From the NCBI GenBank assembly GCA_023229685.1, contig JALNYT010000008.1, forward strand, positions 51,817 through 115,816: a stretch of DNA of 64,000 nucleotides, written 5' to 3'. Positions 4,535 through 56,574 of this stretch are shown here, in pieces. Source of the DNA: Sulfuritalea sp. (GTDB lineage Bacteria; Pseudomonadota; Gammaproteobacteria; Burkholderiales; Rhodocyclaceae). The translations under genes were made by a program, and so were the position numbers. The notes under the pieces were generated by a model. It made no database searches, had not been told where the DNA came from, and worked only from the letters and a program-made list of their open reading frames with translations. How positions within the stretch are numbered: the stretch's first letter is position 1; every line of letters begins with the position of its first letter.

Positions 4535-5536
4535 TTATCCGGCCCGGCGGGCGAAAAACAGCGCAAACCAGGCGCGCGGGTCGGTCCATAGCTGAATGTC
4601 GGCAAACCCCGCCGATGCCAGCAGGGCCGTGAACCCTTGCGGCGAATACTTATACGAGTTCTCGGTGTGAATTCGCTCGCCGGCGGCGAAATGCCGGAGG
4701 CTGCGGCCGGCGGCATCCGGCCAGCTCGCGCTGAGTGCGCGACGGGCCTTCAGGTACATTTCGATGCGGGTCTCGACGGCGTTATAAAAAGCCACGTGCT
4801 GCCAGTCGCCGATGTCGAAATCGGCGTCGAGCCGGGCATTGACGTGCCGCAGCAGGTTGCGGTTGAAGGCGGCGGTGACGCCCAGTTGATCGTCGTAGGC
4901 TGCGTCCAGCAGCGCATGGTCCTTGATCAGATCGACGCCGATCAGCAAGCCGCCAGAGGAGTCCATCTGCGCGGCCAGCCGCTGCAGAAAGAGGCCGGCT
5001 TCGGGCGGGCTGAAGTTGCCGATGCTGGAGCCGGGATAGAAGAACATGCGCCGCTCCGGCGGCAACTCGTCGGGCAGCTGGAGTTCATGAGTGAAGTCGA
5101 GTCCGATGCCCATCATTTCGATCGCCGGCAGTTCGCGTTGCAGGTGCTGCAGCGAATCGCGCAGGAAATCGACCGAAATATCCACCGCGACATAGCGCGT
5201 GGGAAGCACTCCGGCGTGGAAAAGTTTGCCGGCCTTGACGCAGCTGCCGCAACCGAGGTCGATCAGCGTGAAGTCTTCGCCCAACGCCTGCCGGATGGCC
5301 GGCAGATGCTCGATGAAGATGGCGGCTTCGGTACGGGTCGGGTAGTACTCGGGCAGTTCGGTAATCGCCTCGAACAGACGTGAGCCGAGCGCGTCGTAGA
5401 AGAACTTCGGCGCAATGTACGCCTGCGGCTGCAGCAGTCCGGCGGCCAGTTCCCGGCGCAAACCGGCGTTCTGCTGCGGCGAATCCCAGTCGAGAATCTG
5501 ATGCAGTCTGACTTGGGGCGGCATTTTAGAGCCCAC
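4535..5536 (-). CDS. egtD: L-histidine N-alpha-methyltransferase EgtD (hercynine synthase)
   Basis: Motifs KFFYDALGSRLFEAITELPEYYPTRTE...LIDLGCGS...YNAVETRIEMYL...IHTENSYKY are typical of EgtD. Confidence 0.85.
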   Translation of the reverse strand: MGSKMPPQVRLHQILDWDSPQQNAGLRRELAAGLLQPQAYIAPKFFYDALGSRLFEAITELPEYYPTRTEAAIFIEHLPAIRQALGEDFTLIDLGCGSCVKAGKLFHAGVLPTRYVAVDISVDFLRDSLQHLQRELPAIEMMGIGLDFTHELQLPDELPPERRMFFYPGSSIGNFSPPEAGLFLQRLAAQMDSSGGLLIGVDLIKDHALLDAAYDDQLGVTAAFNRNLLRHVNARLDADFDIGDWQHVAFYNAVETRIEMYLKARRALSASWPDAAGRSLRHFAAGERIHTENSYKYSPQGFTALLASAGFADIQLWTDPRAWFALFFARRAG

Positions 5537-5537
5537 T

Positions 5538-6248
5538 TTAGTCGGCCAGTAGCAGAAACACGGTAGGGCGCTTTTCCAGGTCCGGCGGCGTGGCCGTTTT
5601 CCAGTCGGCGATGCGACGTGTGGCGATTTGCTCGCTGGCCAGCGTCAGGTCGGTCGCTAGGCAAAGCCGCGTTTTCGGCCGGCAGTTCAGCAGCAGTGCG
5701 GCAAACAGGGCGCGGTTCCGGTACGGGGTTTCGATGAATATCTGGGTTTGCTGCAGACGCGCCGATTCCTTTTCCAGTTCGGCGATGCGGCTGCCGCGCT
5801 CCGGTTCGCGCGCCGGCAGGTAGCCGTGAAAGGCGAAGCGCTGGCCGTCCAGGCCGGAGGCCATCAGGGCCAGCAGCAACGAGGAAGGGCCCACCAGCGG
5901 CCTGACGCTGAGCCCCAGTTCGTGGGCGCGGCGCACCAGCAAGGCGCCGGGATCGGCCACCGCGGGGCAGCCCGCTTCGGACATCAGACCGATGTCGTGG
6001 CCTGCGCGCAGCGGCGCCAGCAGGCGCTCGATGTCAGCCGGCGTGGGTGTCGCAGGCAACTGCTCGATCGCCAGTTCGCGCAAGGGCAGGGGATGGGCGA
6101 TGCGCTTGAGCTCGGCGCGCGCCGTCTTGGCGTTTTCGGCGACAAAACGGGTCAGCCGGCAGGCGGCCTCACGGGTGGTGGCCGGCAAATAATTTTGCCA
6201 AGGAGTGTCGCCGAGGGCGACGGGCAACAGCCAGAGCGTGCCGGACAT
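5538..6248 (-). CDS. SAM-dependent tetrapyrrole-methylase-fold methyltransferase (RsmI paralogue)
   Basis: LWLLPVALGD...GLMSEAGCPAVADPG...GPSSLLLALMASGL pattern of the RsmI/YraL family. Confidence 0.65.
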   Translation of the reverse strand: MSGTLWLLPVALGDTPWQNYLPATTREAACRLTRFVAENAKTARAELKRIAHPLPLRELAIEQLPATPTPADIERLLAPLRAGHDIGLMSEAGCPAVADPGALLVRRAHELGLSVRPLVGPSSLLLALMASGLDGQRFAFHGYLPAREPERGSRIAELEKESARLQQTQIFIETPYRNRALFAALLLNCRPKTRLCLATDLTLASEQIATRRIADWKTATPPDLEKRPTVFLLLAD

Positions 6249-7691: not shown

Positions 7692-8717
7692 ATGGCGATC
7701 ACCCTCGCGGTGGATTGTATGGGCGGCGACCACGGTCCGTCGGTGACGCTGCCCGCCGTCTTTGAATTCCTGCGTCATGACACCGACTGCACCGCCATTC
7801 TGGTCGGCCGCGAGGAGCTCTTGCGCCCGCAGGCGGAGCGCGCGACGGCCGAATTCGGCAGCCGGTTGTCGATCCGCCATGCCTCGGAAATGGTCGAAAT
7901 GGACGAGGCAGTGGCCAGTGCGCTGCGCGGCAAGAAGGATTCTTCGATGCGCGTGGCCGTGGATCTGGTCAAGGACGGTGCGGCCAATGCCGCGGTGTCC
8001 GCCGGCAACACCGGCGCCTTGATGGCCGTGTCGCGGTTTGTGCTGAAAACCCTGCCCGGAATTGACCGGCCGGCCATCTGTTCCGTCCTGCCGTCGCAGC
8101 GCGGGAATACCTATGTGCTGGACCTTGGCGCCAATGTCGATTGCAGTCCGGAGCACTTGCTGCAGTTCGGCATCATGGGCTCGCTGCTGGTGTCGGCGCT
8201 GGAGCACAAGGAGCGGCCGACAGTGGCCCTGCTGAATATCGGCGAAGAAGCGATCAAGGGCAATGAGGCGGTGAAGCGTGCGGGGGAGTTGCTGCGTGCC
8301 AGCGATCTCAATTTCATCGGCAACGTCGAGGGCAACGACATCTTCAAGGGCACCGCCGACGTGGTGGTGTGCGACGGCTTTGTCGGCAATGTGACGCTGA
8401 AGGCGGTCGAAGGCCTGGCGCATATGATCGGCGGCGCGATGAAGGAAGAATTTTCGCGCAACATTTTGACCAAACTGGCAGCCTTGATGGCCATGCCCAT
8501 TTTGAAATCCTTTCGCCAGCGGTTTGATCCCCGACGTTACAACGGCGCCAGCCTGCTGGGTCTCCGGGGCATCGTAGTCAAGAGCCACGGCTCGGCCGAC
8601 CAGCTGGCTTTCCGCTTCGCGCTGGAGCAGGCCGCCGAGGAAGCCCGGCAGCGCCTGCCGGAAGCCATTGCCGCACGCATGGCCGCCGCCCTGCCAGCGC
8701 CGACTCTTTGCGATTGA
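7692..8717 (+). CDS. plsX: Phosphate acyltransferase PlsX
   Basis: [11 protein letters not shown]...[10 protein letters not shown]...VKSHG motifs and rpmF-plsX-fabH synteny. Confidence 0.9.
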
Positions 8718-8727
8718 TGGAGGTCCG

Positions 8728-9699
8728 ATGACGATCCACACACGAATCAGCGGCACCGGCAGTTATCTGCCCGGCGAACCGATTGGCAACGCGGCCTTGA
8801 TCGCTGCACACGGACTCGAATCGTCCGACGAGTGGATTGTCGAGCGTACCGGCATCCGCAGTCGGCATCTCGCCGCGGCAGGTGTCGCCAGCAGCGATTT
8901 GGCGCTGGAAGCCAGCCGGCGCGCTCTGCAAGCCGCCGGGCGCAAGGCTGAGGAAGTTGATCTCATCATCCTCGCGACCTCGACGCCAGATTACGTTTTC
9001 CCCAGTTCGGCCGCCTTGCTGCAAAGCAAGCTCGGCATCACCAATGGCGCACCGGCCTTCGATGTACAGGCCGTATGCAGCGGCTTCGTCTATGCCATGA
9101 CGATTGCCGAGAAATTCATTCGCTCCGGTTCGCACAAGTGCGCGCTGGTAGTGGGCGCCGAGGTGTTCTCGCGCATCCTCGACTGGAAGGACCGCGGTAC
9201 CTGCGTCCTGTTTGGCGATGGCGCGGGCGCCGTGGTGCTGGAGGCGTCGGAGCAACCCGGTCTGCTGGCCAGCGCAATCCACGCCGACGGCAGCTATCAC
9301 GGCATTCTTTCGGTGCCGGGCCAGGTGTCAGGTGGGGTGGTCACCGGCGATCCCTTCCTGCGCATGGATGGGCCGGCCGTGTTCAAGTTCGCAGTCAAGG
9401 TGCTGGCCGACGTCGCGCATGAAGTGCTGGCGACGGCAGGCATGACGGTGGGGCAGGTGGACTGGCTGATTCCACATCAGGCCAACGTGCGCATCCTGCA
9501 GGCCACGGCGAAGAAACTCCACATACCACCCGAAAATTGCATTGTTACCGTGGCACAGCACGGCAACACGTCGTCCGCGTCGATTCCTCTGGCGCTCGAC
9601 GAATCGGTGCGCGCCGGTCGTATTCAGCGCGGCCAGCATCTGTTGCTGGAGGGCGTTGGCGGCGGCTTCACCTGGGGCGCGACCCTGCTCCGGTTCTGA
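8728..9699 (+). CDS. fabH: 3-oxoacyl-ACP synthase III FabH
   Basis: ISGTGSYLP...[14 protein letters not shown]...HQAN...GNTSSASIP catalytic motifs. The ATG at 8728 was chosen inside ORF 8668..9699. Confidence 0.9.
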
Positions 9700-9818: not shown

Positions 9819-10767
9819 CTTTCCCGGTCAGGGTTCCCAGTCGCTCGGCATGATGGCCGCTTACGGCGATGCGGCAGTGATCCGCGCCACCTTCGACGAG
9901 GCTTCGGCGGCATTGGGACGCGACTTGTGGCAACTGGTCACGGAAGGCCCGGCAGAGGCACTGAATCAGACGGTCAATACGCAGCCCCTGATGCTCACCG
10001 CCGGCATTGCCGCCTATCGCCTGTGGCTTGAAAAGGGCGGTCCGCAACCGGCTTTGGTGGCCGGGCACAGCCTTGGCGAGTATTCGGCGCTGGTGGCGGC
10101 CGGAGTGCTGCAATTGAAGGACGCGGTACCGCTGGTGGAACTGCGCGCCCAGGCGATGCAGGCCGCCGTGCCGGCCGGTGAAGGCGCCATGGCGGCGGTC
10201 ATGGGCCTTGATGCCGCGGCCGTGATTGAAGCCTGCGCCGAGGCGGCGCAAGGGCAGGTGGTGCAAGCCGTGAATTTCAACGAGCCGAAGCAGACCGTGA
10301 TTGCCGGCCACAAGGCGGCGGTCGAGCGTGCGGCTGAACTGGTCAAGGCGAAAGGGGCCAAGCGCGCGCTGATGCTGCCGGTATCGGCGCCTTTCCATTG
10401 CTCGCTGATGTTGCCGGCGGCGGAAAAACTGAAGCTGCGTCTGGCGCAACTGAGTTTTGCCACGCCGCAGATTCCCGTGCTCAACAACGTCGATGTGGCG
10501 CAGCTTGCGGATCCGGTCGCGATCAGGGATGCGCTGGTGCGTCAGGCGGCCTCGCCGGTGCGTTGGGTCGAGACCATGCAGGCGATGCAGGCGGCAGGGG
10601 TGACCCATGTCTTCGAGTGTGGTCCGGGCAAGGTGTTATCGGGACTGGTCAAGCGCTGCGTCGACAGCCTCAACGGCGGCGCCATGAATGACCTGGCTGC
10701 GATGGATGCAGTTCTGACAGTCGTATCCCACCAGGGGATACCGTCCCCGGCACGGCCGGGAACATAA
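9802..10767 (+). CDS. fabD: Malonyl-CoA-ACP transacylase FabD
   Basis: FPGQGSQSLGM...GHSLGEYSAL motifs. Confidence 0.9.
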   Translation: MKFALVFPGQGSQSLGMMAAYGDAAVIRATFDEASAALGRDLWQLVTEGPAEALNQTVNTQPLMLTAGIAAYRLWLEKGGPQPALVAGHSLGEYSALVAAGVLQLKDAVPLVELRAQAMQAAVPAGEGAMAAVMGLDAAAVIEACAEAAQGQVVQAVNFNEPKQTVIAGHKAAVERAAELVKAKGAKRALMLPVSAPFHCSLMLPAAEKLKLRLAQLSFATPQIPVLNNVDVAQLADPVAIRDALVRQAASPVRWVETMQAMQAAGVTHVFECGPGKVLSGLVKRCVDSLNGGAMNDLAAMDAVLTVVSHQGIPSPARPGT

Positions 10768-25985: not shown

Positions 25986-26369
25986 TTGTTCATGATCTTC
26001 GGCATCGGCACCGACATCGTTGCCGTAAAGCGCATGGCCGATTACTGGCAACGCCACGGCGAGCGCGGCCTGGAGAAGATGCTGGCACCGGACGAGCGCG
26101 AGGCCTGTCGCAGCAGCCATGACCCGGCGCGCTTCCTGGCCAAGCGCTTCGCCGCCAAGGAGGCGCTGGGCAAGGCGCTGGGCACCGGCGTGCGTGCCCC
26201 CGTGCTGCTGCCCGACATCGCCGTCAGCCATGATGAACTCGGCAAGCCGGCTTTCGCCTTCGCGCCGCAACTCGCCGCCTATCTTGCCGAACGCGGGCTG
26301 ACCGCCCACCTTTCCATCAGCGACGAGCAGGACTACGCCGTCGCCTTCGTCATTCTGGAAACACGATGA
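25986..26369 (+). CDS. acpS: Holo-ACP synthase AcpS
   Basis: IFGIGTDIV...RFAAKEALGKALGTG...SISDE. Confidence 0.85.
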   Translation: MFMIFGIGTDIVAVKRMADYWQRHGERGLEKMLAPDEREACRSSHDPARFLAKRFAAKEALGKALGTGVRAPVLLPDIAVSHDELGKPAFAFAPQLAAYLAERGLTAHLSISDEQDYAVAFVILETR

Positions 26370-27370
26370 ACACACTCCCCCTCGGTCCGCTGATGATCGA
26401 TATCGCCGGTCTGGAACTCTCCGCCCTCGACCGCGAACGCCTGGCGCATCCGCTGGTCGGCGGCGTGATCCTGTTCGCCCGCAACTACCGCGATCCGCAG
26501 CAACTCACGGCCCTGTGTGCGGCGATTCACACCCTGCGTGCGCCGGCGCTGCCGATCGCCATCGATCACGAAGGCGGCCGCGTGCAGCGCTGCCGCGAAG
26601 GCTTCACCCATGTCCCGCCGATGCGCCGCCTCGGCGAATTGTGGGATCGCGACGCCGCCGCCGCGCGAGCAGCGGCCGCCGATGTCGGCTACCTGCTGGC
26701 GGCGGAGCTGCGCGCCTGCGGCGTCGATTTTTCCTTCACCCCGGTGCTCGATCTCGATTGGGGCCCCAGCGGCGTCATCGGCGATCGCGCCTTCCACCGC
26801 GACCCGGTGGCCGTCGCCGAACTGGCCGGCGCCCTGATCGACGGCCTGCGCGCCGCCGGCATGGGCTGCTGCGGCAAGCATTTCCCGGGACACGGATGGG
26901 TGGCGGCCGATTCGCACCTCGCGATTCCGGTCGATGAGCGCAGCCTGGCCGAGATGGCGCCCGACCTGGAACCCTATCGCCGCGTCAGGCTCGACGGCGT
27001 GATGCCGGCGCACGTGATTTACCCGCAGGTCGACAGCCGGCCCGCCGGTTTCTCGCCGGTGTGGCTGGAAACGCTGCGCAAGGAGTTCGCCTTCGACGGC
27101 GTGATCTTCAGCGACGACCTGTCGATGGAAGGCGCCAGCTTCGCCGGCGACATGGTGCAGCGCGCGGACGCGGCCTGGGCCGCCGGCTGCGACATGCTAC
27201 TGATCTGCAATGCGCCGGATGCGGTGGCGCGGGTGCTGGACAACTGGAAGCCGGCCGCCGATCCCGTGCGAGCCGCGCGGCTGGCGCGTCTGTCGCCAAG
27301 CGGCCGCTGGCAGCAGGATGCCGCGCGCTACGCGGCGGGCAAGGCGGCGGTGGAGAGTCTCACCGCCTGA
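26366..27370 (+). CDS. nagZ: Beta-N-acetylhexosaminidase NagZ
   Basis: GGVILFARNY...IAIDHEGGRVQR...GKHFPGHG...FSDDLSM. Confidence 0.85.
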   Translation: MNTLPLGPLMIDIAGLELSALDRERLAHPLVGGVILFARNYRDPQQLTALCAAIHTLRAPALPIAIDHEGGRVQRCREGFTHVPPMRRLGELWDRDAAAARAAAADVGYLLAAELRACGVDFSFTPVLDLDWGPSGVIGDRAFHRDPVAVAELAGALIDGLRAAGMGCCGKHFPGHGWVAADSHLAIPVDERSLAEMAPDLEPYRRVRLDGVMPAHVIYPQVDSRPAGFSPVWLETLRKEFAFDGVIFSDDLSMEGASFAGDMVQRADAAWAAGCDMLLICNAPDAVARVLDNWKPAADPVRAARLARLSPSGRWQQDAARYAAGKAAVESLTA

Positions 27371-27446
27371 GACTCGGGTTGCAGGAGTCGGCGCTGGCGG
27401 GACGGCGGATGGCACGTAATTGATGCTGACCCATTTGGTTGTTGAA

Positions 27447-27504
27447 GCCCAACGTTCGAATTCGGCGGCCGCTCTGGGCGGCCCGCTGAAATGAGGGGTT
27501 GGGC
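27447..27504 (-). mobile_element. Integron attC recombination site (58 bp), 3' end of cassette B
   Basis: Minus strand reads GCCCAAC...GTTGGGC (RYYYAAC...GTTRRRY). The ends are perfectly complementary, and there is a central GGCCGC/GCGGCC stem with an unpaired base. It starts 1 nt after the stop codon. Confidence 0.7.
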
Positions 27505-27505
27505 G

Positions 27506-28384
27506 TCATGCAAGCTCACGGCCGAGAAGCTTCTCGAGAATGCGAAGCGGTGACCTTGACGGATCCAGCATGGAGTTGACGGGCAAATGATAGGTTTGTT
27601 CAAACGCGTACTGCCCACTCATTGCCGCATGCGACACGAGGTCAGTGAAGACCATCCACGTGCTTCCCGCTTGAAACTCGCAGGCGCGTTGAGCGACTTG
27701 CGACTGGTATGCCAGGTCCGCCTTCATCCGGTCATGCAGTTGCAGCATGTAGTGATCATAGGCAGTCCGTCGACGCCTCGTGATGCCAAGAAAATTGAGC
27801 ACATGGTCGGCGCCCCAGATTGGGCCGGGGAGAGAAGGCAGGTAGCGGCGCGCGACGCCTTCGAATGATTCGCCGAGCCTCCAGTTGCGGCTTTGTCCGT
27901 GCGGATTTACATTGGTGAAGACACGCAGTATTCGGTTTCCCTGCGTGGGTGAAGACGGAAAACTGTCCACGTGCAGACGCGTATCGTCCTTCCGCCATGA
28001 GGTTCGCCGCCCGGCGATCTCCGTGGGCCGAAAGCTGGTGCGAGCCTGTTCCAATCCTGTCTCATAGCGTGGCAGCAGGCTGCGTAGCAAGTGCCTGCTC
28101 GATGTGGCGAAGCGGTTCATCATGAACTGCAACCGTTGCAGCAGATCCGCGTCATTGACGCTGCTGCCGCGTAGCAATCCATTGGCTGGATCCAGACTGA
28201 CGTTTTTCCCCTCCCCGGCTACCGTCGGGGACAGGAATTGGCCTTCGCCATCTTGCAGCAAGAAGCTGAGGTGAGGGAACAGCAGGACGTTTCCCCGTTC
28301 CAGCGCATCTGCTGCGAGTTCCTGCTCCGCTGTTGTGACTTGCTGATCCCAATCTGGGTTTGACAGAGTGATGATGTCGGTCAC
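27506..28384 (-). CDS. Kdo hydroxylase-like (KdoO/DUF2843) Fe(II)/2-oxoglutarate dioxygenase, carried as an integron cassette
   Basis: TSWRKDDTRLHVDSFPSSPTQGNRILRVFTNVNPHG, YDHYMLQLHDRMKAD and SHAAMSGQYAFEQTY match my recollection of the Kdo hydroxylase family. GTG 28384 is preceded by GGAGGT; the track's TTG 28411 lies inside the attC core. Confidence 0.6.
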   Translation of the reverse strand: MTDIITLSNPDWDQQVTTAEQELAADALERGNVLLFPHLSFLLQDGEGQFLSPTVAGEGKNVSLDPANGLLRGSSVNDADLLQRLQFMMNRFATSSRHLLRSLLPRYETGLEQARTSFRPTEIAGRRTSWRKDDTRLHVDSFPSSPTQGNRILRVFTNVNPHGQSRNWRLGESFEGVARRYLPSLPGPIWGADHVLNFLGITRRRRTAYDHYMLQLHDRMKADLAYQSQVAQRACEFQAGSTWMVFTDLVSHAAMSGQYAFEQTYHLPVNSMLDPSRSPLRILEKLLGRELA

Positions 28385-28405
28385 GCTGATTACCTCCGGT
28401 GTGAC

Positions 28406-28475
28406 GCCCAACGTTCAAGGTCAGGGGCGCTGCGCGACTTTATCGCGCAGCGTCCCCTGCACCGCAGGGTTAGAC
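28406..28475 (-). mobile_element. Integron attC recombination site (70 bp), 3' end of cassette A
   Basis: Minus strand reads GTCTAAC...GTTGGGC with a 16-bp central stem (CAGGGGCGCTGCGCGA / TCGCGCAGCGTCCCCTG) and one extrahelical base. It starts 15 nt after the stop codon. Confidence 0.75.
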
Positions 28476-28490
28476 CTCAGACGCTGATGG

Positions 28491-29207
28491 TTATGGGTGC
28501 AGTGCGGCATTGGTCCACAACGCTTCATAGGTTGAAAGGACGGCAGGAAATGCATCAACGATTTGCGTCAGGGTTGTCGGTGCCTTCTTGGCACCGTCTT
28601 TGAATGAAGCACCAGAGTGATAACACGCAACGCGATCCACGATTACATAGCGATCATGGAAACCTGCGGCAGATCGGACTTCAATGGCCCCGCCATTTTG
28701 TTGACGTAGAAGCGCTACGGCCGAGAGAAGAGATGGCATGCGTTCCCTAGCCAATAGGCGAACTGCCACTCCTTGCCCAACGTGCGGGAGGTAGCGAGAG
28801 ACGAACTCGGCTTCGAGGTAAGGGTCTATGAAGAATAGATCTGCCTTTGCTGATTCAATCGCCTTGCGAACCTCGTCAAAGTAGTCGAAGACAGCGCCAT
28901 TCTCCAAACTCACGGACAGTGGCCCCACGGTTTGTAGCCGCAGATCATGACGCGCTTGATGCAGCATTGTTAGAACGCCTTTAACCCCAGCCTCTACATC
29001 TTGGGACATCCGTGAGTTCATTTTGGCAATATGTCCTTCAAACAGCACCGTTCCCTTGATGGGATTCCAAGAGTTCATGACAGCCAGTGCTCGACCAAGC
29101 CAAGCGAAATGATCTGGTGTGTCGTCGCCAAACGTATGCCCAGGAGGCATCGTGCGAAGGACATCTTCTATTTCTGCAAGGAGCTGCGCGGGAGGAATTT
29201 GGTTCAT
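28491..29207 (-). CDS. Hypothetical cassette protein with a C-terminal PLD/HKD-like motif
   Basis: 238-aa ORF bounded by attC-type sites. The C-terminus reads DLFFIDPYL...VRLLARE...GFHDRYVIVDRVACYHSGASFKDG, an HxK-like motif with Arg. No SD sequence is visible before ATG 29207. Confidence 0.55.
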   Translation of the reverse strand: MNQIPPAQLLAEIEDVLRTMPPGHTFGDDTPDHFAWLGRALAVMNSWNPIKGTVLFEGHIAKMNSRMSQDVEAGVKGVLTMLHQARHDLRLQTVGPLSVSLENGAVFDYFDEVRKAIESAKADLFFIDPYLEAEFVSRYLPHVGQGVAVRLLARERMPSLLSAVALLRQQNGGAIEVRSAAGFHDRYVIVDRVACYHSGASFKDGAKKAPTTLTQIVDAFPAVLSTYEALWTNAALHP

Positions 29208-29212
29208 ATGAG

Positions 29213-29226
29213 GTCTAACGTTAAGT
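29213..29226 (-). mobile_element. Cassette-boundary core site ACTTAAC|GTTAGAC (attI-like simple site or degenerate attC)
   Basis: An inverse-core motif and a core motif are directly abutted, 5 nt upstream of the cassette A start codon. Confidence 0.45.
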
Positions 29227-29507
29227 CGACCGCCTAAATGATGGTAAACAACCCATCAAAGAGGCCGTATAGAAAATCCGGAAAAGTGCAAAGCCGATAT
29301 TCATCAGTGGCTTGGTCATTTTTAGTGGGGCCTAAAAAATCAACTCCATACCGGCGCATTCCGAAAGTACATACGCCGATGGGATTAGACGATTTATCCG
29401 GCACCTTGGCAAGGGCGCACCAAACCCGGCCCATGCCATCGCATCGCCGTTACCTGCCCGCGAAGCGGAAGTCCAGGTACGCAGAGCGCACCAGCGCCGA
29501 CTCTTGC

Positions 29508-30434
29508 TCAGCCCTCGATGCGGTGGACCTTGGCGTACTGGTGGCGGTTGTTGGCGATCAGGGCGACCAGCACGATGGCGGCTCCCATCAGTTCGATGGC
29601 TGCCGGGCGCCGGCCCTGATAGATGGCGATCAGGTAGGTGATGACTGGGGTGAAGTTGGCGAACAGGCCCGCGTTCAAGGGGCCCAGCTTGGCCACGCCC
29701 ATGTTCCAGAACAGGATGCCGAACACCGAGGCGAAGAGGATGAGGAAGGCGAGTTGCGGCCAGACCTCCAGCATTTTCGTCGTGGTCGGCGGCTGGCTGT
29801 GCCCGGCCAGCGTGGCGATGGCGACCGCGACCAGGATGGCAAAGCAGCCCAGCGAGCAGGACAGCGTCGTGTAGCGCACCGGCGACCAGCCGGGGAATTG
29901 CTGCCCGCCCAGCGTGTAGGCGGTCCAGAACAGCGAGGCGAGGAACACCAGGCCGTTGCCCAGCGCGTCGCCGCCGGTCAGTCGCGTCACGTCGCCCGCC
30001 GTGATGACGAACAGTTCGCCGAAGAGCGCCAGGGCGATGGCGCCGAGCGTGAAGTTGTCGGGTCGGCGATGCGTGCGCCACCACTGGAACAGGGCGACCT
30101 GTATCGGCCCCAGCGCCAGGATCATGCCGCTGATCTCGGGGCGCGTCAGTTTCAGGCCCTCGAACAGGCAGACGCCGAAGCCGGCGAAGCCGAGGGTGCC
30201 GAACAGGACGATTTTCCAGAACTGCCCTTCGGTGCGCAGCGCCGCGCGTCCTTCCCGAACCCAGAGCAGGCCGATGAAGACGAGTGCTGCGGTACTGAAG
30301 CGCATCGCCGTCAGCCAGTAGGGATCGACCGCCTGCAGGGCGGATTTGCCGACCGGCAGGAAGCCGCCCCAGATGGCGATCACCAGCAGCATGTAGAGCG
30401 TGCCGCGGCGGTGATTCCGGTGCTCGGGCGTCAT
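29508..30434 (-). CDS. DMT/EamA-family transporter
   Basis: Ten-TM-like hydrophobic profile with two EamA repeats. ATG 30434 is preferred; the track start 30467 would overlap the upstream gene. Confidence 0.75.
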   Translation of the reverse strand: MTPEHRNHRRGTLYMLLVIAIWGGFLPVGKSALQAVDPYWLTAMRFSTAALVFIGLLWVREGRAALRTEGQFWKIVLFGTLGFAGFGVCLFEGLKLTRPEISGMILALGPIQVALFQWWRTHRRPDNFTLGAIALALFGELFVITAGDVTRLTGGDALGNGLVFLASLFWTAYTLGGQQFPGWSPVRYTTLSCSLGCFAILVAVAIATLAGHSQPPTTTKMLEVWPQLAFLILFASVFGILFWNMGVAKLGPLNAGLFANFTPVITYLIAIYQGRRPAAIELMGAAIVLVALIANNRHQYAKVHRIEG

Positions 30435-30441
30435 CGGGCGT

Positions 30442-31188
30442 TCACAACTTGAGCACGCCGCGGACAAGATGCCGCGATTGCGCGAGCCGGGTCAGCGCCG
30501 GCAGCAGATTGAGGCCGGTCTCCGCCTTCAGGTGCGCCGCGGCGGTCTTCAGTTCTTCAAGAGTCGGCGCTGGTGGCGCGCCGATCGCGCCCAGCGCAAT
30601 GGCATTGCCGCTCTCGCAGGCGGGAAAGGAGATGGCACGGCCTTCGAAGGCGTCTTGCAGGCGCGTCACGCTGTTGTGGAAATCCTTGCGGCGCGACAGC
30701 AGGTTCACGCACAGCAGCCCGTCGTCCGCCAGGCGGGCGCGGCAGTCGAGGTAGAAGGGCAGGGTATCGAGTCGCCCGGTGCGGGCGTCGGCATCGTAGC
30801 CGTCGACCAGGATCAGGTCGTAGTGCTGCCTGGTCTTGATGATGAAGTCGGCGCCGTCGTCATGGCGGATGTCGATCCGCGCCGGATCGTCGGGCAGCTT
30901 GAAAAACTGCCGGGCGGCGGCCGTCACGCGCGGGTCGATTTCGATCACGGTCAGCTTTGCCTGCGGCCGGTAGCGGTAGAGAAACTTGGTCAGCGAAGCG
31001 GCGCCCAGCCCGATCAGCAACACCTTGCGCGGCCAGTCGTCGGGGTGCAGCAGCAGCGGCACCATCATGCCGCGGGTGTAGTCCAGTTCCAGCGCAAAGG
31101 GCCGCGCGATGCGCATCGCGCCCTGCACCCAGTCCGATCCGAAATGCAGATAGCGGACGCCCGCCTCCTCGCTGATGTCTATGTTCAT
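30442..31188 (-). CDS. Spermidine-synthase-like SAM-fold protein
   Basis: VLLIGLGAASLTKFL...VIEIDPRV...DLILVDGYD Rossmann-type motifs. ATG 31188 was chosen (MNIDISEE). Confidence 0.6.
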   Translation of the reverse strand: MNIDISEEAGVRYLHFGSDWVQGAMRIARPFALELDYTRGMMVPLLLHPDDWPRKVLLIGLGAASLTKFLYRYRPQAKLTVIEIDPRVTAAARQFFKLPDDPARIDIRHDDGADFIIKTRQHYDLILVDGYDADARTGRLDTLPFYLDCRARLADDGLLCVNLLSRRKDFHNSVTRLQDAFEGRAISFPACESGNAIALGAIGAPPAPTLEELKTAAAHLKAETGLNLLPALTRLAQSRHLVRGVLKL

Positions 31189-55359: not shown

Positions 55360-56574
55360 TCAAGCAAGCAGCGAACCCAGATCGAAGGCCGTGTCGGCCG
55401 CTTGCGCGGGCGTGGGCGAGATGCCCTTCTCGAACAGCTTGCGGCCGTTCATGTGCTCGGGCGGCTGGTTCAGCGAGTCGATCGCAATCAGTTTGCCGGC
55501 CTGGTAGTAGTAGGCGGAGAACTTCTGCGTTGTTGGGTCGCCGCGCGTGACCACCTGGTCGAAGCCGGCGGTCAGCCCGAGCATCTGCAGTTTGACGTCG
55601 TATTGATCGGACCAGAACCACGGTGCCGCATGGAAGGGCCGGTCGCGGCCGAGCAGCGCAGCGGCGGCCGACCGGCCCTGCTCGAGCGCGTTCTGCACGG
55701 ATTCGAGGCGGCGCAGGCTGCCGTCGTCCAGGCGCCGCGCGGTACAGTCGCCGGCGGCGACGATGGTCGGGTCGGAGCAGCGGCCGCAGGCATCGACTAC
55801 AATGCCGCCATTGACTTCGAGGCCCGCCGCCTGGGCCAGTTCAACATTGGGGATGATGCCGATGCCGACCAGCACCAGGTCGGCGGGAAACTCGCGACCG
55901 TCCCTGGTTCTTACCGCTGTGATTCGGCCGCCACTGCCGACCAGTTCCGAGACCATGGCGCCGAGCACCACTTCGGCGCCATGGCGGGTGTGCAGGTCGA
56001 GGTAGAACTGCGAAATCAGCGGCGCGACGACGCGCGCCATGAGGCGGTCGGCGGCTTCCAGCACGGTGACGCGCTTCTCCTTCCTGCGCGCGACGGAGGC
56101 GACTTCGAGGCCGATGAAACCGCCGCCGATGATCACTACGTTATGTGCGGCCTCCAGCGCCGCCGCAATCGCCTTCGCCTCGTCCAGCGTACGCAGGCCG
56201 TAGACGCCGTGCCAGTCAGCCCCGGCCAGCGGCAGCGGGCGCAGGCGCGAGCCGGGGCACAGTGCCAGACCGTCGTAGCCCAGCGTCGAGCCGTCGCCGA
56301 GTGCGACCCGCTTTGTGCTGCGATCGATCGCCGTGGCGCCGGCGCCGACTCTCAGGTCGATGTCTTTCTTCACCAGCAGTTCCGGGGGACGCATCATCAG
56401 CTGTGCTTCAGCGGTCTGACCCAGCAGAAAGCCCTTGGACAGCGGCGGACGCTGGTAGGGGGCGTGCGCTTCGTCGCCGATCAGCGTGATGGGTCCCGCA
56501 TAGCCTTCGCTGCGCAGCGTCTCGGCGACAGTGAGTCCGGCCAGGCCGGCCCCGATGATCAGCATCCCGCTCAT
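55360..56574 (-). CDS. FAD/NAD(P)-dependent ferredoxin/rubredoxin reductase-like oxidoreductase
   Basis: Two Rossmann motifs (LIIGAGLAG, VIIGGGFIGLE), APYQRPPLSK, and a C-terminal reductase dimerisation domain. Confidence 0.8.
   Translation of the reverse strand: MSGMLIIGAGLAGLTVAETLRSEGYAGPITLIGDEAHAPYQRPPLSKGFLLGQTAEAQLMMRPPELLVKKDIDLRVGAGATAIDRSTKRVALGDGSTLGYDGLALCPGSRLRPLPLAGADWHGVYGLRTLDEAKAIAAALEAAHNVVIIGGGFIGLEVASVARRKEKRVTVLEAADRLMARVVAPLISQFYLDLHTRHGAEVVLGAMVSELVGSGGRITAVRTRDGREFPADLVLVGIGIIPNVELAQAAGLEVNGGIVVDACGRCSDPTIVAAGDCTARRLDDGSLRRLESVQNALEQGRSAAAALLGRDRPFHAAPWFWSDQYDVKLQMLGLTAGFDQVVTRGDPTTQKFSAYYYQAGKLIAIDSLNQPPEHMNGRKLFEKGISPTPAQAADTAFDLGSLLA

Follow-up and report, generated by a model that had tools for sequence, protein, structure and literature searches.

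INTRODUCTION

Sedentary chromosomal integrons with decayed integrase genes are known, for example in Xanthomonas. Cassette arrays that stand without an integrase gene are classified as attC-site clusters that have no integron-integrase (CALINs), defined by two or more same-strand attC sites separated by less than 4 kb and by the lack of a nearby intI (PMC4889954), and two-attC arrays are their commonest size, 1362 of 2961 CALINs having just two cassettes (bioRxiv 10.1101/2022.09.11.507474). Efficient IntI-mediated insertion at genomic 5'-GWT-3' sites (attG) has also been shown, and many small CALINs have been argued to arise in this way (Loot et al., bioRxiv 10.1101/2022.09.11.507474). Here we analyse a stretch of 64,000 nucleotides of a Sulfuritalea-like betaproteobacterial chromosome (contig JALNYT010000008.1; this whole stretch is hereafter called the window), in which two integron cassettes, carrying orf238 and kdoO, lie between the host genes nagZ and eamA. 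We assign the locus with high confidence to the bona fide two-cassette integron arrays without a functional integrase, that is, to the CALINs, and consider it moderately likely that both this assignment and descent from a relic integron hold together. A search of the literature found nothing specific on Sulfuritalea integrons.

The locus shares with sedentary chromosomal integrons a fixed chromosomal position between housekeeping genes, a cassette content that varies among related species, a probable decay of intI, degenerate attC sites in relatives and a non-resistance cargo of unknown or cell-envelope function. Unlike them, it has only two cassettes, its integrase is almost wholly gone, its two attC sites are not homogeneous, and the ancestral complete integron is not observed in the window's clade. 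With CALINs (PMC4889954) it has in common two same-strand attC sites 0.9 kb apart, each 3' of a co-oriented open reading frame (ORF), and no intI within 4–10 kb; nothing essential differs, save a possible short N-terminal intI-like relic beside the array. Insertions at attG sites and isolated cassettes (single attC sites lacking integron-integrases, SALINs; bioRxiv 10.1101/2022.09.11.507474) are likewise intergenic, have G/TT junctions (the slash marks the crossover) and no upstream attC, and are immobilised on that side, whereas here there are two cassettes, the core site is perfectly restored at the downstream junction, an IntI-like relic is present and attC remnants recur at this locus in sister species. 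CALINs being common and well described, this locus is one more, well-documented case of a known kind of element; what is new is the probable intI relic and the attC remnants in three related species.

RESULTS AND DISCUSSION

Two attC sites of canonical architecture

Both attC sites lie on the minus strand, with 901 nt from the end of one to the start of the next, at the coordinates that an earlier note on this DNA, made from the letters alone, had read for them (Table 1). The first, attC1, is a 70-nt imperfect palindrome that reads GTCTAAC CCTGC GGT G CAGGGG A CGCTGCGCGAT-AAA-GTCGCGCAGCG CCCCTG ACC TTGAAC GTTGGGC, with the R'' box GTCTAAC and a hybrid R' box GTTGGGC, of which the G comes from cassette 1 and TTGGGC from cassette 2. 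The second, attC2, is a 58-nt imperfect palindrome, GCCCAAC CCCTC ATT T CAGCGG G CCGC-CCAGA-GCGG CCGCCG AAT TCGAAC GTTGGGC, with R'' GCCCAAC and R' GTTGGGC; its last 6 nt (27452..27447) are outside the cassette, and its ends pair perfectly, as had been noted earlier, GTTGGGC complementing R'' fully. The two sites have a common layout, R''(7)-5 nt-3 bp-bulge-6 bp-bulge-variable stem-6 bp-3 bp-6 nt-R'(7), and the same geometry is found in 28 attC sites from other contigs. The earlier description allowed each site one extrahelical base, but two are present on the R''/L'' arm of each, at 28460 (G) and 28453 (A) in attC1 and at 27489 (T) and 27482 (G) in attC2, the latter having one A.C mismatch besides. 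On the bottom strand these bases are C and T in attC1 and A and C in attC2, as compared with the usual G and T. Because they stand on the R''/L'' arm, the minus strand is the top strand, which matches the orientation of the ORFs; the covariance scores described below likewise fix the orientation of the attC sites, the plus strand of attC2 reaching only 8.8 bits. The stop codon of orf238 (28493..28491) ends 15 nt before attC1 and that of kdoO (27508..27506) 1 nt before attC2, the very range of 1–15 nt given previously.

Table 1. Features of the cassette array and its surroundings in the window
Feature	Position	Strand	Details
attC1 (orf238 cassette)	28406..28475	-	R1 57.0 bits, E=5.9e-13; DNA folding z=-6.6
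attC2 (kdoO cassette)	27447..27504	-	R1 53.1 bits, E=6.5e-12, full-length; folding z=-3.2
Cassette 1 (807 bp)	28412..29218	-	begins TTAGAC, complement of its own R'' GTCTAA
orf238 (238 aa)	28491..29207	-	ATG start; N-terminal helical domain and C-terminal domain of predicted phospholipase D (PLD) fold
Cassette 2 (959 bp)	27453..28411	-	begins TTGGGC, complement of its own R'' GCCCAA
kdoO (292 aa; predicted)	27506..28384	-	GTG start; ribosome-binding site GGAGG at 28397..28393
Left junction ACTTAAC/GTTAGAC	29226..29213	-	crossover G/TT between 29219 and 29218; 5 nt before the ATG at 29207
AT-rich spacer, array to intI-like relic	29227..29335		alignments A1 and A4 with L004
Candidate intI 5' relic	29336..29500	+	core 29369..29422, translated TYADGIRRFIRHLGKGAP; divergent from the cassettes; conserved in L004, partly in L016
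nagZ (GH3 beta-N-acetylhexosaminidase)	26366..27370	+	flanking host gene, convergent with the cassettes; Pfam PF00933, 5e-68
eamA (DMT-superfamily transporter)	29508..30467	-	host gene upstream of the cassettes, same strand; Pfam PF00892, 4e-35

The scores in Table 1 come from R1, a proxy attC covariance model built here from 21 seed sites (alignment A3), all on other contigs and none in the window, which were drawn from 80 metagenome loci encoding orf238 homologues together with a few found by exact look-up; R1 was run on the window with filters off. Its seeds are 87% paired, compared with 27–45% when the partner is slid by 1–3 columns, and compensatory changes are seen in 10 of the 12 L-helix pairs. 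The attC sites that follow orf238 homologues range from 58 to 132 nt in length and have widely different stem sequences. Applied to two class 1 plasmid integrons, R1 recovered 12 of the 13 expected attC sites on the correct strand with 29–57 bits (aadA1, aadA2 twice, aac(6')-Ib-cr, catB3, gcuF, qacL, blaOXA-1, dfrA12, cmlA1, psp and estX), the arr-3 site being the only weak one. The aadA1 site scores 57.1 bits under R1, against 57.0 and 53.1 bits for the sites in the window, so that a failure of such a model to score them, which had been named beforehand as grounds for abandoning the reading, did not occur. The attC sites of class 1 resistance cassettes (aadA1, aadA2, catB3 and aac(6')-Ib) share the architecture of those described here and score 48–57 bits as compared with 53–57 bits; the cargo differs, the genes in the window not being antibiotic-resistance genes.

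The motif pair RYYYAAC...GTTRRRY is by itself not beyond chance: each half of it occurs 27–28 times per strand in the 64-kb window, where three pairs spaced 50–150 nt apart are seen, compared with about 1.2 expected per strand. By contrast, the fold structure and the covariance E-values are beyond chance. The third such pair (10479-10568) was rejected as an attC, R1 giving no match there, and so was a long third attC between GTCTAAT (29390) and GTTAGAC (29213), where R1 gives no match either. The next best R1 match in the 64 kb (12.9 bits, E=0.38; 55642-55692, minus strand) is a GC-rich hairpin without R boxes and is probably noise.

Cassettes that recur in other arrays

The measured cassette lengths agree with the earlier estimates of about 0.8 and 0.96 kb. 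In both cassettes the first 6 nt complement the cassette's own R'', as is expected when a circular cassette has been opened at G/TT.

The product of orf238 belongs to a large family, with 1805 homologues. The unit of orf238 and attC occurs in at least 28 distinct sequence contexts, with the stop codon of the homologue lying within about 50 nt of the attC, and many of these contigs are arrays of 4–6 attC sites. The 5' end of the cassette, GTTAGACCTC..ATG, is kept in many contigs; the DNA upstream of GTT is unrelated between them, and homology among orf238 cassettes begins at GTTAGAC. The protein is annotated in NCBI as a Sulfuritalea sp. protein from a metagenome-assembled genome (MAG) under the locus tag M0P95_15390, and it has no match in Pfam and none in a PDB sequence search. 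In an AlphaFold2 model built from 112 homologues (predicted local distance difference test 90), the C-terminal domain resembles NucT (6ehi), Nuc (1byr) and Zucchini by Foldseek (E=1e-5 to 1e-4), and also FAM83. The HKD-like motif of orf238, H184-D-R186-x4-D191, departs from the PLD motif HxK(x)4D at the lysine position, which is invariably R across the family. Of the whole protein, only residues 85–216 match the C-terminal third of two PADLOC PDC-S05 models (E about 1e-15); protection of E. coli from T4, T5 and T7 has been reported for one PDC-S05 representative, whose domain make-up is different and includes RhuM. These model-based likenesses make a nuclease-type or defence role for orf238 a lead, not a finding. 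The cassette family of orf238, which numbers at least 1800 proteins, combines a C-terminal domain of PLD fold with a link, at the level of a domain, to a phage-defence candidate, and it is thus a reasonable choice for functional screens of cassette genes.

Two further settings of orf238 were observed. In L083 (6001-6799; L numbers denote the loci compared), a lone orf238 cassette (75% amino acid identity; 69-nt attC, 59 bits) stands between a TctC-family gene and a tRNA U5-methyltransferase gene, with a left junction, ...ACATTAC/GTTAGACC, that is not an attC; this copy is an isolated-cassette, SALIN-like instance of the family. L085-L090 (for example L086:2102-4791 and 5112-6095) hold an array of small co-oriented ORFs, including an orf238 homologue with an 87-nt attC, whose content differs between samples and which ends at a convergent tyrosine recombinase of 327 aa. 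The latter was rejected as an integron integrase, scoring 47 bits with TIGR02249 as compared with a cutoff of 265.

KdoO is an Fe(II)/2-oxoglutarate dioxygenase that converts the outer 3-deoxy-D-manno-oct-2-ulosonic acid (Kdo) of the lipopolysaccharide inner core to D-glycero-D-talo-oct-2-ulosonic acid (Ko), as established for Burkholderia and Yersinia. The second ORF is, as predicted by family membership, such a Kdo hydroxylase: residues 4–291 of 292 match the NCBIfam equivalog NF053719 with 389.1 bits (cutoff 300), and Pfam PF11004 is matched with 354.8 bits (3.7e-106). A homologue with 88% amino acid identity lies in L180 between two attC sites of a three-attC array, behind a different cassette of 358 codons. 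The DNA identity between the two is 89.4% over window positions 28465..27451, and both the start, TTGGGCGTCACACCGGAGGTAATCAGCGTGAC, and an orthologous attC are shared. The L180 attC has the same layout as attC2, with the usual extrahelical pair (top-strand C and A, which read G and T on the bottom strand) and a perfect 6-bp helix, from which attC2, with its extrahelical T and G and its A.C mismatch, appears to have drifted slightly. In four more contigs, which encode a KdoO of 78% identity, the stop codon is directly followed by a weaker attC-like site. In JGI 3300067032, the contig with P0123 has an 89%-identical KdoO and, after it in that orientation, HTH_3, methyltransferase, CN_hydrolase and NMO genes, a layout that looks like a cassette array. 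Taken together, an enzyme predicted to modify the lipopolysaccharide inner core is seen travelling as an integron cassette.

Absence of an integrase gene

No Phage_integrase gene is among the gene calls within 10 kb on either side of the array. A bona fide integron integrase was found in the scan of the relatives' nagZ loci (L071; TIGR02249 487 bits, cutoff 265), and tblastn with it gave nothing at E<=1e-3 in the 64-kb window or in the loci of the Sulfuritalea clade. An intact intI beside and divergent from the array is thus absent, and only an IntI-like stretch of about 20 codons, with stop codons on both sides, is present there. The lack of a tyrosine recombinase within several kb, asserted in the earlier note, is therefore borne out. 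Two same-strand attC sites less than 4 kb apart with no intI nearby make the locus a CALIN by the published definition (PMC4889954), and the same designation, proposed before on the letters alone, stands on the attC scores, the recurrence of the cassettes elsewhere and the lack of a detectable IntI.

Flanks, junction and composition

Read on the minus strand, the order is eamA, a spacer of about 290 nt, the junction, cassette 1, cassette 2, about 75 nt and nagZ, and the spacer between eamA and the array bears the intI-like stretch on the opposite strand. The flanking genes, previously called nagZ and a DMT transporter, are confirmed as nagZ and eamA. NagZ of the window is 82–94% identical in amino acid sequence to its counterparts in Sulfuritalea and Rhodocyclaceae MAGs, and eamA orthologues were found in L004, L006, L009, L010 and L016. 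The left boundary was read as in the earlier note and may represent an attI-like or genomic half-site joined to the start of cassette 1; the R1 scan of the window found no full attC upstream of it. The AT-rich spacer beyond it is presumed to be the former attI/promoter region.

The cassette segment has a GC content of 0.48–0.60, compared with 0.65–0.72 on both flanks, in keeping with the AT-richness remarked on earlier, and the GC content at third codon positions (GC3) is 0.49 in orf238 and 0.66 in kdoO as compared with 0.78–0.90 in the ten surrounding host genes. The composition of the cassettes is foreign to the host. The sole terminator-like site of a terminator scan falls within kdoO, and Rfam gave nothing relevant over 26500-30500.

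A hypervariable interval in related species

The interval between nagZ and eamA is hypervariable: L009 has about 15 nt there, L004 0.34 kb, L010 1.6 kb, L006 3.3 kb and L016 3.9 kb, and in other relatives it is longer than 6 kb. Neither orf238 nor kdoO was found at this interval in any of the related species compared. Syntenic conservation of the segment in relatives, which would have spoken against an array of cassettes, was accordingly not seen. In L004, the closest cassette-free relative, homology to the window reaches 27436, 10 nt short of attC2, and resumes in blastn at 29354; a block nearer the junction, CCGGATTT..CCTCTTTGAYGGGTTGTTT, within 29227..29335, is also common to both. Since L004 is homologous on both sides, both array flanks are native DNA and the array is absent from this sister species. 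An exact reconstruction of the empty site from L004 failed, a diverged 114-nt stretch with a hairpin that R1 does not score lying at the insertion point. In the cassettes' place, L004:7080-7150 has a 37-nt hairpin, GGTCGGAGT-N19-ACTCCGACC, followed by TTTGGCT and without an R1 score; this hairpin may be what a deleted cassette or attC has left behind.

Three other relatives have R1 attC sites at the locus. Downstream of nagZ, these are L005:4706-4776 (minus strand, 29 bits) and L008:6597-6666 (minus strand, 20 bits), and in L007 two sites of 25 bits on the plus strand (9538-9606 and 10192-10254) each stand beside a small ORF. All of these sites keep the terminal stem of attC1, GGACGCTGCGCGATAAAGCCGCGCAGCG, with broken R boxes (GCGCACAC, GGAGGGC and GTCGGGC); the same stem family is also present in unrelated metagenome arrays. 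A strict RYYYAAC...GTTRRRY regular expression with a folding filter had given nothing on the nagZ relatives, as it is blind to degenerate sites, which R1 later showed. Directly after nagZ, the translations can also be read as a YefM/YoeB-like toxin-antitoxin pair in L007 (7150-7663) and as a toxin-antitoxin module of the nucleotidyltransferase type in L016 (7070-7480).

Integron parts were observed on the other side of nagZ as well. In Gallionellaceae/Nitrosomonadales-like genomes a bona fide intI lies directly upstream of nagZ, with attC sites between acpS and intI; copies are found at L071:814-1869 (plus strand), L051:741-1793 and L057:212-1213 and remnants at L050:5591-5851, L038:1-153 and L048:3561-3783, and in L041 and L072 the DNA between acpS and nagZ contains attC sites but no intI. 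Integron parts thus recur beside nagZ in two separate betaproteobacterial families, upstream of the gene in one and downstream of it in the other.

A candidate intI relic beside the array

The stretch between the spacer and eamA is, on the similarities that follow, somewhat more probably a real relic of intI than a chance likeness. In a relaxed tblastn of IntI against the variable intervals, the best match was in L004, with a matching one in the window; both correspond to IntI residues 55–80, lie on the plus strand and belong to conserved DNA immediately downstream of eamA. They translate to TDKSYIDWIRRFIRHLGKG (L004) and STYADGIRRFIRHLGKG (window), compared with TEQTYVDWIKRYIYFHGKR in the L071 integrase and TEQAYVHWVRAFIRFHGVR in IntI1. 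Against Pfam, the L004 peptide matches one family only, the integrase N-terminal SAM-like domain PF13495, with an E-value of 0.005 and a score under the gathering cutoff. Furthermore, two hidden Markov models (HMMs) of the IntI N-terminus, made from 3 or 4 integrases, were run against 22,242 six-frame segments (914 kb) from the window and 80 nagZ loci, and directly after the training sequences ranked the L004 segment (E=0.02–0.04) and then the window segment (E=1.1–1.3). The candidate relic lies 120–150 nt beyond the first cassette and is divergent from it, as the intI of an integron would be. A protein database search with the L004 relic peptide returned no candidates. The published screen for pseudogenes used a C-terminal IntI profile (PMC4889954), so that an N-terminal relic such as this one would have been missed.

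On the other strand, a block downstream of eamA, GCCCTTGCCAAGNTGCCGGATAANTCGTNTAAT, is found in the window (29354-29420, minus strand), in L004 (7187-7260) and in L016 (about 10700-10760), conserved in the three species while the intergenic DNA around it is not. We read this block as the intI relic seen from the opposite strand; a regulatory element or small RNA is the alternative, and Rfam is empty here.

Origin of the array

Our preferred interpretation, held with moderate confidence, is that the array is a stump, left by a resident chromosomal integron after the destruction of its integrase gene, and not a fresh insertion. The intI-like relic and the decayed attC sites of sister species suggest that the locus held an integron in an ancestor and has been decaying since, and that the window retains its best-preserved piece. 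The earlier note had spoken of an array "inserted" between the two flanking genes; its position between the flanks stands, and insertion may be the wrong picture in view of the same two observations. The cassettes would have been captured by IntI-mediated recombination of folded bottom-strand attC sites at the G/TT crossover. Without an integrase in cis they would now be fixed unless a compatible IntI is provided in trans; as it has an intact attC on either side, kdoO should be excisable, and orf238 would be bounded on one side by a junction that is not an attC. Expression would come from read-through or from an unrecognised upstream promoter, read-through being the simplest guess as there is no consensus promoter or terminator between eamA and the cassettes. 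Provided that the stump is genuine, the locus offers a small example from nature of how a chromosomal integron decays into a CALIN and raises the question whether orphan arrays stay active via trans integrases.

Several points weigh against the CALIN assignment and a resident-integron stump taken together. The candidate relic is only about 20 codons long with stop codons upstream, its statistics are marginal (E about 1 in the window), and the NCBIfam integron integrase model gives it no score. It is common to species without these two cassettes, yet the cassettes are compositionally unameliorated, so that they may postdate the loss of intI and would then have needed an integrase in trans. The attC sites of L007 are oppositely oriented. 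attI sequences are integrase-specific and require the cognate IntI for recognition; no attI is verifiable at the locus, where only the junction ACTTAAC/GTTAGAC is present, and the promoter scan found no sigma-70 consensus promoter in 27300-29600. Furthermore, R1 is not IntegronFinder's own model, and the intI search covered the 64-kb window of what is a metagenome contig or MAG.

Insertion at attG, which we regard as possible but clearly less probable than a stump, would make the cassettes genuine and the integron never local: a distant integrase would have inserted them at an ordinary genomic G/TT, either as one two-cassette circle or as orf238 at attG followed by kdoO into attC1, and the intI likeness would be fortuitous. 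The empty site would then read ...ACTTAACG/TTGGGC.... Experiments have demonstrated this route, and it has been put forward for many two-cassette CALINs (bioRxiv 10.1101/2022.09.11.507474); both junctions here are G/TT, and both flanks are homologous to the cassette-free L004. The strongly foreign GC3 of the cassettes also suits it, since it accommodates unameliorated cassettes beside an intI stump seemingly older than the species splits, and for the window itself the relic statistics are weak. However, the top two non-training matches of the IntI HMMs in 914 kb of six-frame translation fall at the place and in the orientation expected of intI, and the sole Pfam match of the L004 peptide is an integrase SAM-like domain. 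The decayed attC sites of the same family at the locus in three sister species would require repeated independent insertions in one intergenic region, and the full GTTGGGC of attC2, a perfect complement of R'', has a chance of about 1/256 at a random GWT site.

A wider version of the resident-integron interpretation, which we consider doubtful, takes the nagZ neighbourhood as an old, lineage-spanning integron anchor, where an orphan attI/attC platform would have kept exchanging cassettes via a trans integrase. Its basis is the complete integron (cassettes-attI-intI) upstream of nagZ in the Gallionellaceae-like genomes, together with the Sulfuritalea remnants downstream of the gene, and it would explain why cassettes that look fresh and foreign stand next to an intI stump older than the species splits.

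That the integron cassettes of another organism were mis-joined into a Sulfuritalea contig during assembly is very improbable. The source is metagenomic, the GC content of the segment differs from that of its flanks and attC repeats can confuse assemblers, but both junctions recur in a separate 75-kb ENA contig (99.995%, 1 mismatch in 20.7 kb), and as the window extends past the end of that contig the two are separate records. The orf238 protein is also encoded on a 139-kb NCBI MAG contig, attC1 and attC2 differ, so there is no long repeat to collapse, and both flanks run on into syntenic host genes.

Finally, the reading of the palindromes as intrinsic terminators or repetitive extragenic palindromic (REP)-like repeats with chance RYYYAAC/GTTRRRY ends, and of the ORFs as ordinary accessory genes, might draw on a motif pair no rarer than chance and on a dispersed repeat, AGTCGGCGCTGG, on both sides of the locus, but it is effectively refuted by R1 scores that equal those of textbook attC sites with nothing comparable elsewhere in the window, by the lack of a T-tract terminator at either site, by homologous units of ORF and attC in many arrays with compensatory stem changes, and by the dispersed repeat being a different sequence that lies outside the cassettes.

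A dispersed repeat around the locus

That the inverted repeat AGTCGGCGCTGG around the locus marks the termini of a mobile element was considered and rejected, since it is a dispersed repeat of the genome, present 13 times in the window. Its form (A/C)AGAGTCGGCGCTGG(C/T)G..ACGGCG occurs these 13 times at no more than one mismatch, compared with 0.7 expected, at 8694, 27386-27397 (plus strand), 29491-29502 (minus strand), 30562, 48978 and eight more places. Several copies stand just 3' of stop codons, including those of nagZ and eamA, and the repeat may be a REP-like or uptake-sequence-like element of the genome.

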